Below, piece after piece: positions 10,709 through 12,307 of a stretch of 64,000 bases of DNA. Position 1 is the first letter of the stretch, and each line of letters begins with the position of its first letter. The stretch comes from Euprymna scolopes. Taxonomy: Eukaryota. The position numbers were made by a program, and so were the translations under genes. Under the pieces are notes generated by a model. It was not told where the DNA came from, made no database searches, and saw nothing but the letters and a program-made list of their open reading frames with translations. The stretch lies in the NCBI GenBank assembly GCA_053919585.1, contig CM132807.1; one strand, 5' to 3'.

Positions 10709-12307
10709 TTGTTAGATTCTTCAGGCAAGACTGTTCCTGGGTTGGTGCGGTCCCTTGACCTCTTCATCGATAGTGATGGACTAATCAGGTCGGGTGGTAG
10801 AATTAGCCGATCTCTCCACTTTAACGGTGAAATTAAACACCCGATTCTGTTGGCAAAACATCACCCAGTGGCTAGGCTTATCATCATCGATGCACATGAC
10901 AGATGCCAGCACTTGGGAGTCGCGTCCACTTTGGCAGAATTAAGACGGCATGGTTACTGGGTACCCAAGGGCAGACAGGCAGTGAAGACGGTCCTGGCTT
11001 CATGCGCACTGTGCCGGAAGTACAATGCCAGAAAAGTCATGCCTTCAAATGTTCCCAACCTTTCCTGCTTCCCGTATCGAACTGGAGGTTCCCTTCAAAC
11101 ACACGGGGGTAGATTTTACAGATCACCTGTGGGTTAAAGAAGGTAATAAGGAGGTGAAAATGTACCTGCTCATCTTCACTTGTCTCAGTGTCAGAGCTGT
11201 ACATGTCGATGTGGTGCCGGATATGAGCGCGTTGTCCTTTCTGCAGGGTTTGGTGCGGTTCACCAACCTATATGGCATTCCCTCTGCCATATTTTGTGAC
11301 AATGCTAAAACCTTTTTAGGTGGTGGTCGGCTGTTTAAGAGGCTGGTATTGACTCACGATTACCAACAGAAATTCGGCTCCTGTTTAATCAAGTTCTGCC
11401 CCATCCCCCTTTTCTCGCTCTGGGTTGGAGGTGTCTGGGAGAGAAGTATCCAGACAATCAAGAATTGTCTTTTTAAGGTGGTTGGTAGAGGTCAGATGAA
11501 TTATTTCACCCTATTGACCATCATATCGGATATTCAAAGAGCCATCAACAACCGCCCTCTAACCTATCGAGAATCGGCAGAGACTGAGTTGGAGGCAGTA
11601 ACCCCCAACATGTTTTTGCGGCCTAATGAGAGTTCCGGGCTGCTTTTGAGTCTCAATGATGCAGATTTTGGCGCACACCTTCCTCCCAGTCGCGAGAGGC
11701 TTCTCAGAACCATGCGGGTACGGGACCAGTGTCTGGAGAAATTCTGAGCTCTGTGGTACAATGAGTACTTGCTGAGTCTCAGAGAGAGACCCCAGGGTCG
11801 TTCCAGAGTGCCTATCCGGAATTGTTTCAAAGTTGGAGACGTAGTGTTGGTGAAGAGTCCTCTGAAGCCTAAGCCCTTTTGGGTCCTTTTAATCATCCTG
11901 GAGGTGTTTTGCGGAGAGGATGGCGTAGTAAGGTCAGCAAGGGTAAGACAGGGGGTGGGAATGCAGTACATATCCACTCATTAAAGAACCTATTTCCCCT
12001 GGAATTATCCTTGAGTGAAGAGGATCATGCTCCAACTGTACCTGCATCCGTTGATGAGCCGGCTGACAATCTCGGTGATACTCCTCCCCAGTCTGCATGT
12101 TCCAATGAAGTTGTTTGGTATTGCCCCATATGTGGTTCCCCGCAGGGTGACGAAGACATGATTTGTTGTGATAGATGTGACGACTGGTGTCACTTCAGGT
12201 GTGTGGGGATTGAGTCTCCACCTCCTGAAACACAAAAGTGGTACTGGCCCGATTGTGTCCGCTACGACGTCGGCGAGGCAGGCCTAGCCTCCGCCCCGAA
12301 TAGCTAG
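10709..12307 (+). pseudogene. pol: BEL/Pao integrase (HHCC, DDE, DUF5641-like tail) fused to C-terminal PHD finger
   Basis: HDRCQH...CALC zinc domain, then GVDF / CDNAKTF / VWER catalytic triad, then VGDVVLVK..FW..DGVVRSARVR. One frameshift joins HSLKNLFPLEL and then the PHD. Stop at 12307. Confidence 0.9.
12116..12256 (+). other. PHD finger (TAF3-like) at the integrase C-terminus, family A
   Basis: WYCPICGSPQGDEDMICCDRCDDWCHFRCVGIESPPPETQKWYWPDC fits the C4HC3 pattern, with the 7th Cys changed to Trp (TGG). Confidence 0.9.

Follow-up and report, generated by a model that had tools for sequence, protein, structure and literature searches.

Integrases of a BEL/Pao retrotransposon lineage carry a C-terminal TAF3-type PHD finger with a plausible role in integration targeting

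The window, a stretch of 64,000 nucleotides of Euprymna scolopes DNA, carries two LTR retrotransposons of the BEL/Pao superfamily that encode a PHD finger at the end of their integrase. The first of them, element A, spans 6.3 kb (6528-12868) and has a single gag-pol region that ends in the finger. Its features are the following.

6528..6970, plus strand: 5' LTR, with TG...CA ends and boundaries read from the sequence
7000..8130, plus strand: Gag (DUF1759, Pfam 3.4e-9) without Cys-His zinc knuckles, followed by the protease motif LLDTGS
8796..10705, plus strand: reverse transcriptase and RNase H (Peptidase_A17 region), frame-shifted, 54-63% identity in tblastn with protein P0151 and Pfam 4e-31
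10870..11960, plus strand: integrase with H2C2 zinc domain (7.2e-10), DDE core and SH3/Tudor-like C-terminal barrel (DUF5641, 4.6e-9)
11975..12007, plus strand: integrase tail motif HSLKNLFPLEL, which ends the barrel in nearly all relatives too
12008..12115, plus strand: acidic, Pro/Ser-rich variable linker, 25-41 residues long with 19% mean identity in four intact families and low pLDDT
12116..12256, plus strand: TAF3-type PHD finger, with cage-equivalent Trp at 12116, Gln at 12143, Met at 12158 and Trp at 12185
12259..12303, plus strand: basic terminal tail PLRRRRGRPSLRPE, in another frame in the window copy and forming the in-frame C-terminus of intact relatives
12405..12425, plus strand: T-rich run followed by a short purine tract, preceding the 3' LTR, read from the sequence and common to element B
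12428..12868, plus strand: 3' LTR, defined by alignment to the 5' LTR and by sequence

The assignment of element A to BEL/Pao rests on its size, domain order and integrase spacing. LTRs of about 440 nt and an overall length of 6.3 kb lie within the 0.2-1.2 kb and 4.2-10 kb known for LTRs and genomes of Belpaoviridae (PMC8742986). The succession of DUF1759, Peptidase_A17, H2C2 and DUF5641 is the PR-RT-RH-IN arrangement of BEL/Pao, and the spacing D(61)D(46)E of the integrase in three intact relatives falls in the expanded DD(45-53)E range that characterizes the superfamily (excerpt of PMC554778). The lineage has the LTRs, single gag-pol, domain set and long DD(46)E spacing of Belpaoviridae; unlike their usual members it has an additional C-terminal PHD finger and another sequence in place of the usual RPxRxAA-like end, and family A, the family of element A, is devoid of the triple Cys-His box. 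A chromovirus identity was ruled out by the presence of the BEL/Pao domains and by the lack of any chromodomain match, although the element could act like one.

Several frame shifts and stops have inactivated the window copy of element A. Its integrase is disrupted by a frame shift, by a stop at 11745 and by a frame break near 11950-11960, between the C-terminal barrel and the tail motif; a second frame break lies near 12257, just past the PHD finger. These breaks and the stop preclude synthesis of an integrase-PHD fusion from this copy. The two LTRs agree at 428 of 444 aligned positions, the flanking target-site duplication is imperfect, matching at 3 of 5 bases, and Gag is colinear with that of the knuckle-less intact relatives. 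At both frame breaks, as well as at the degenerate positions, contigs from three DNA runs (three studies) depart from the window copy, showing that the lesions are private to this copy. One RNA run yielded 9 reads, 8 of them below 90% identity, and hence no evidence that the window copy is transcribed. The summed contig depth, which may include host PHD genes, is 1194 over the PHD core versus 144 over the linker, 195 versus 17, and 158 versus 22; this rise fits with conservation of the finger and is given little weight.

The segment 12116-12256 is a real PHD finger whose similarity to the family is far beyond chance. It starts with the Trp at 12116 and finishes with the last Cys at 12254-12256, exactly the boundaries proposed in the first-pass annotation of this DNA, and scores 35.9 bits against the Pfam PHD family (PF00628; cut-off 24, E 7.4e-9). 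The finger shares its frame with the integrase tail motif: the order HSLKNLFPLEL, acidic Pro-rich linker and PHD, as first described, runs in one frame from 11975 through 12256. Cys or His occupies seven of the eight positions of the zinc ligands (Cys4-His-Cys3) in the window copy, position 7 (12245) being degenerate, and all eight in intact relatives. A search of solved structures with the window finger gives 27 matches headed by four of TAF3 (3e-12 to 1.4e-10), the fifth being DIDO1 (2.4e-6). The alignment to TAF3 has no gaps and 24 identical residues out of 47, as counted from the alignment, so that the TAF3 likeness initially put forward is borne out.

A second element of the same superfamily lies further downstream in the window.

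23789..30344, plus strand: element B, second BEL/Pao element, with LTRs identical at 347 of 368 positions and Gag zinc knuckles kept
29726..29866, plus strand: PHD finger at the integrase C-terminus of element B (Pfam PHD 1.6e-9)

Over RT-RH-IN, element B shares 46% identity with the closest of its relatives, and it is distant from element A. Its tail after the PHD is non-basic and ends in RPSL. The sequence ATAC flanks element B on both sides, and in both elements a T-rich run followed by a GGGGAA purine tract precedes the 3' LTR (12405-12425 in A, about 29945-29973 in B). A decayed Gypsy-type element with matches to reverse transcriptase and RNase H occupies the minus strand at 12869-15600 and abuts the 3' LTR of element A. 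An ORF for a LINE-type reverse transcriptase (Pfam RVT_1 3.4e-37) is found at 30954-32564 and a second, partial LINE copy, 80-92% identical, about 7.4 kb downstream at 39164-40009. Only 2 of the 73 flanking ORFs of at least 75 amino acids match Pfam, both from the decayed Gypsy element. The scan of the 64-kb window, which small exons would escape, turned up no recognisable host gene, tRNA or Rfam RNA, and CpG and GC profiles reveal no CpG island at the insertion sites in this genome, which has little CpG depletion. The insertions A and B both lie in repeat-dense DNA. Two old insertions in such DNA are weak evidence on the choice of integration sites, since selection filters the survivors and short exons escape the scan.

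Relatives of the fusion were found by HMMER with a tail-plus-PHD query over 1.84 billion representatives. The integrase tail motif precedes the finger in 15 of the best 150 of the 620 matches; a word-index search of the same stretch against longer proteins gave no match, unlike the full HMMER search. According to the first-pass annotation, known PHD fingers of BEL elements lie N-terminal to gag. Among the best 120 of 388 relatives retrieved with the P0006 integrase, the top three have a C-terminal PHD, the other 117 are PHD-less, and no PHD occurs at any other place. Named members of the PHD-less set come from Armadillidium and Nymphon. The three PHD-bearing proteins, P0151 (of the P0006 cluster), P0158 and P0159, are uninterrupted polyproteins of 1766-1778 residues ending in DUF5641-PHD, with intact protease, reverse transcriptase, RNase H and D(61)D(46)E motifs. 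In all three the PHD follows the integrase in frame, whereas an out-of-frame finger had been named at first as grounds for dismissing it.

The phylogeny of the polymerases was built from RT-RH-IN sequences (44 rows, 1048 columns) by a quick search that raised a composition warning for family A. It includes the three intact PHD-bearing relatives, elements A and B (X at their breaks) and, from the set of 117 PHD-less relatives, 39 sequences. All five PHD-bearing polymerases group in one clade (SH-aLRT 100) among the PHD-less relatives, in which element B is sister to family A. An integrase-only tree, with 144 rows of shorter sequence, supports family A at 99 and the union of A and B at only 82, and leaves P0079 unplaced. 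A single gain of the PHD in the sampled lineage is supported by this sequence phylogeny. The fragments P0002, P0024, P0047 and P0079 carry PHDs as well, with best matches of their integrase ends mostly to PHD-less relatives; these fragments could represent deeper branches or independent captures. Some elements (P0002/P0156 and P0024) have a tandem pair of TAF3-like PHD fingers after the integrase. Scans for DNA of the relatives gave only short PHD matches without polymerase, at 8 metagenome-contig loci (tblastn) and 2 viral-contig loci.

Conservation along the integrase end was compared in the four intact families that bear the PHD. Mean pairwise protein identity reaches 0.70 in the PHD, close to the 0.69 of the C-terminal barrel and above the 0.58 of the 115 residues preceding the barrel; it drops to 0.19 in the linker and rises to 0.81 in the 15-residue basic tail. 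The difference between PHD and linker is protein-level evidence for purifying selection on the finger, on which the initial proposal depended. The PHD is almost certainly a functional, conserved domain. Breaks at and around the finger of the window copy could have suggested that the PHD is carried along neutrally, or that this copy received a fragment of a host gene. This is most improbable and already largely refuted by the three full-length relatives, in which the PHD is in frame, intact and as conserved as the integrase barrel, and by its presence in two elements of the window with far-apart polymerases.

The AlphaFold model of P0007 is poor overall (mean pLDDT 51); only the barrel and the PHD, with 74-88 over the finger, are well predicted. 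The DUF5641 segment (residues 129-180) is modelled as a Tudor/SH3-like barrel at 1.9 A from the Tudor domain of PHF1, which suggests that DUF5641 is the C-terminal domain of BEL/Pao integrases. This fold accounts for the Tudor-PHD tandems (PHF1, UHRF1) at the top of the Foldseek ranking; a Tudor-PHD tandem arrangement was rejected on account of an rmsd of 8.5-11.9 A.

Several lines of evidence relate the finger to TAF3. The family profile finds TAF3 first among solved structures at 1e-23 and the next structure at 2.5e-10 (11 to 13 orders of magnitude), and its named non-element matches are TAF3 (3 of 35 rows). The finger of the P0007 model overlays the TAF3-H3K4me3 complex (5wxh) at 1.0 A over 48 columns. 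In a PHD tree of 67 rows and 59 columns, element fingers fall within a group that holds TAF3 (97/95) and 14 family-A fingers form a clade (100/96); the TAF3 label stands there for Bromo_TP plus PHD, three rows being named as such by their source, and 8 other rows belong to the group. This tree is poorly resolved, element fingers requiring 4 changes, and it does not pin the donor to one TAF3 lineage. The sequence comparisons nonetheless make it likely that the element PHD was captured from the host TFIID subunit TAF3. The capture of a TAF3-type reader announced at the outset is thus upheld for the type of finger and left imprecise for the donor lineage.

The histone-binding face is largely maintained. 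In TAF3, the H3K4me3 cage consists of D877, M882, W868 and W891, I883 contacts T3, and D889 or E905 contacts R2 (excerpt of PMC12238850). The equivalents of M882, I883, D886 and D/N889 are each present in 21 of 22 element fingers and that of W868 in 18; W891 is found in 22 of 22, a count fixed by the search pattern, 4 of 23 element proteins being too degenerate to match and dropped. Position D877 is Gln in 12 of the 22 fingers, including the window copy, and Asp in 4, so that the TAF3 cage is not fully retained: the early statement that it was holds for three of its four positions, the Asp being mostly Gln. E905 is Glu in 9 of the 22 element fingers and in 12 of 21 among TAF3-type fingers. The fingers of P0002, P0024 and P0047 keep the TAF3 signature D-D/N-G-S-x-M. 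In sum, the element PHD is like TAF3 in its gapless alignment with about 50% identity and in the W868, M882, W891, I883 and D889 equivalents; it is unlike TAF3 in the Gln at D877, in W894, which is Phe in 20 of 22 fingers, in the S880-P881 serotonin-binding surface, mostly absent, and in its fusion to an integrase without histone-fold domain. From these residues, the element PHD probably binds methylated H3K4, with a strength and selectivity that may differ from those of TAF3.

The replacement of the cage Asp by Gln in family A and the variability of E905 are also compatible with a finger that binds H3 tails as a general chromatin anchor, or that reads H3K4me1/me2, and that raises the efficiency of integration without sharp promoter targeting. 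The two window insertions in repeat-dense DNA without recognised gene are in line with it. We consider this rather unlikely: the three hydrophobic cage positions are kept, P0002, P0024 and P0047 retain the TAF3 signature, and old copies in gene-poor DNA would say little if selection removes promoter insertions.

In the intact proteins of family A the finger is immediately followed by a C-terminal basic tail, [KR]RRRGRPSLLP, a feature missed by the first-pass annotation. Its RGRP core and upstream basic run are conserved and followed by SLL. This tail replaces the RPxRxAA-like end detected with a loose pattern in 91 of the 117 PHD-less relatives. Pfam AT_hook has no match at E up to 0.1 in P0151, P0158, P0159 and P0154; the tail resembles an AT-hook in its core and could equally be a nuclear localisation signal. 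At the C-terminus of the PHD-less relatives (P0160-P0276) an acidic linker leads to a short basic motif; most have RPxRxAA there, and a subgroup has RRSxRxR...F/Y or SSRGRVRRP...F. We take these basic motifs to resemble nucleosome-binding arginine-anchor motifs.

Loss of the Gag zinc knuckles, also overlooked initially, distinguishes family A. The triple Cys-His box is a hallmark of BEL/Pao Gag, with Tas as published exception. A pattern scan found no knuckle in the three frames of element A and none in P0151, P0158 and P0159, while three are present in each of the 65 full-length PHD-less relatives and element B keeps them. Element A (7870-8130) and the three intact relatives have a short Arg/Gly/Ser-rich stretch between capsid and protease. 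Since the RT-RH-IN tree nests family A among knuckle-bearing relatives, the absence of knuckles is a secondary loss, and since element B, its sister, has both PHD and knuckles, the PHD was gained before that loss. This branch of BEL/Pao is thereby shown to stay intact without nucleocapsid zinc knuckles.

The co-occurrence, with knuckles absent from all three full-length PHD-bearing relatives and from element A and present in 65 of 65 PHD-less ones, and the finding of the RRRGRP tail in the knuckle-less clade, bring up a role in the particle: PHD and basic tail would bind RNA or cDNA, or serve nuclear import, and so offset the lost knuckles. As a single event on the tree, the co-occurrence has no statistical weight. 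A particle role for the finger is improbable because in element B the PHD came first, next to knuckles, and because its conserved face is the histone-binding one; it could still explain the basic tail alone.

To our knowledge, chromodomains and a Tudor domain are the readers so far known on integrases, and their ties are mainly to heterochromatin; Gao et al. are said to have shown in 2008 that chromodomains direct insertion there. Histone readers occupy the integrase C-terminus in chromoviruses (Ty3/Gypsy, with a chromodomain) and in the CoDi-A Copia elements (excerpt of PMC2774666), and Ectocarpus Gypsy elements have integrase readers too, among them the Tudor-bearing Gypsy-10_Ec32 (excerpt of PMC12477816). 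The lineage described here resembles all of these in having a reader at the integrase C-terminus of an LTR retrotransposon, at a position that matches that of the chromodomain, and differs from them by its superfamily (BEL/Pao), by the fold of the reader (PHD) and by the expected mark, the active H3K4me3. In the Ginger1-9_HM transposon of Hydra a PHD lies C-terminal to an integrase-like DDE enzyme (excerpt of PMC2836005). That element is distinct, being a cut-and-paste DNA transposon whose integrase is Gypsy-like and whose PHD, present in 1 of 16 listed families, has a Ulp1 protease next to it; the excerpt mentions neither a TAF3 link nor a targeting role. The association of a methyl-lysine reader with a basic NLS/AT-hook segment as chromatin tether is reminiscent of LEDGF/p75 and of ING2-PHD/LEDGF fusions, and fusion of the ING2 PHD to the integrase-binding domain of LEDGF redirects HIV-1 integration to start sites (excerpt of PMC8149907). 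LEDGF, however, is a host cofactor that acts in trans and reads through a PWWP domain, whereas the reader described here is naturally evolved and encoded by the element.

A TAF3-type PHD on a BEL/Pao integrase is real, conserved and lineage-defining, and its involvement in targeting is plausible. We lean towards the hypothesis that this BEL/Pao lineage uses its TAF3-derived, H3K4me-reading PHD to tether integration to active promoter-type chromatin. The PHD would stay on the mature integrase after protease cleavage, giving a protein composed of core, SH3/Tudor-like barrel, flexible linker, PHD and basic tail. The acidic linker would let the PHD reach the nucleosome tail and grip H3 tails methylated at K4, and the basic tail would add a DNA or nucleosome contact or nuclear import, making a combination of reader and basic patch like that of LEDGF, here in cis. 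Strand transfer nearby would bias insertions towards H3K4-methylated, active promoter chromatin; on balance, we expect such a bias towards active promoters. A more ambitious version remains tentative in our eyes: the lineage would have taken over the H3K4me3 reader of TFIID and, by joining it to an AT-hook-like tail, would employ it as a built-in equivalent of LEDGF to insert at active promoters; it would be the first natural case of an integrase-encoded reader of an active-promoter mark and a mirror of the chromoviruses, with one branch that dropped its knuckles.

The TAF3 origin ties the finger to transcription initiation (excerpt of PMC12238850), which leaves room for a decoy or anti-silencing device that binds H3K4me3 or a methylated host protein and keeps the LTR promoter active, or competes with TFIID, with no part in the choice of insertion sites. 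The protein lacks both an effector domain and a DNA-binding domain specific for the LTR, and the PHD stands at the position of known targeting domains, rendering such a device hardly probable.

No report of a C-terminal PHD in BEL/Pao was found in the literature covered, and annotation of it is possible in Repbase entries, supplements and subscription journals, which lie outside that scope. The word PHD is absent from the main-text excerpts of PMC3118150, PMC6238403, PMC8556966, PMC554778, PMC2774666, PMC3601003 and PMC5890265 and from the whole text of the ICTV profile (PMC8742986); in the excerpt of PMC3286476 it names a host gene. A TAF3-derived PHD that acts on integration would provide, in nature, the direct targeting of active promoters that has so far been made only through engineered LEDGF fusions, and would mark the PHD-bearing lineage as able to reshape host gene regulation. 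The PHD-bearing families and their PHD-less sisters in the same genomes offer a clean comparison for the choice of insertion sites by BEL/Pao elements.

Other proteins combine these domains differently. P0004, P0005, P0010, P0012-P0015, P0017 and P0018 have three TAF3-like PHD fingers, and two of them have also the TAF3 histone-fold domain (Bromo_TP); multi-PHD TAF3 proteins thus appear to exist in some lineages. The ESM Atlas contains a cluster of 80 members, mostly from molluscs, of about 451 amino acids with H2C2, rve and PHD, which scores below 0.9 and is a lead only. It represents another integrase-PHD fusion, probably Ginger- or Gypsy-like.
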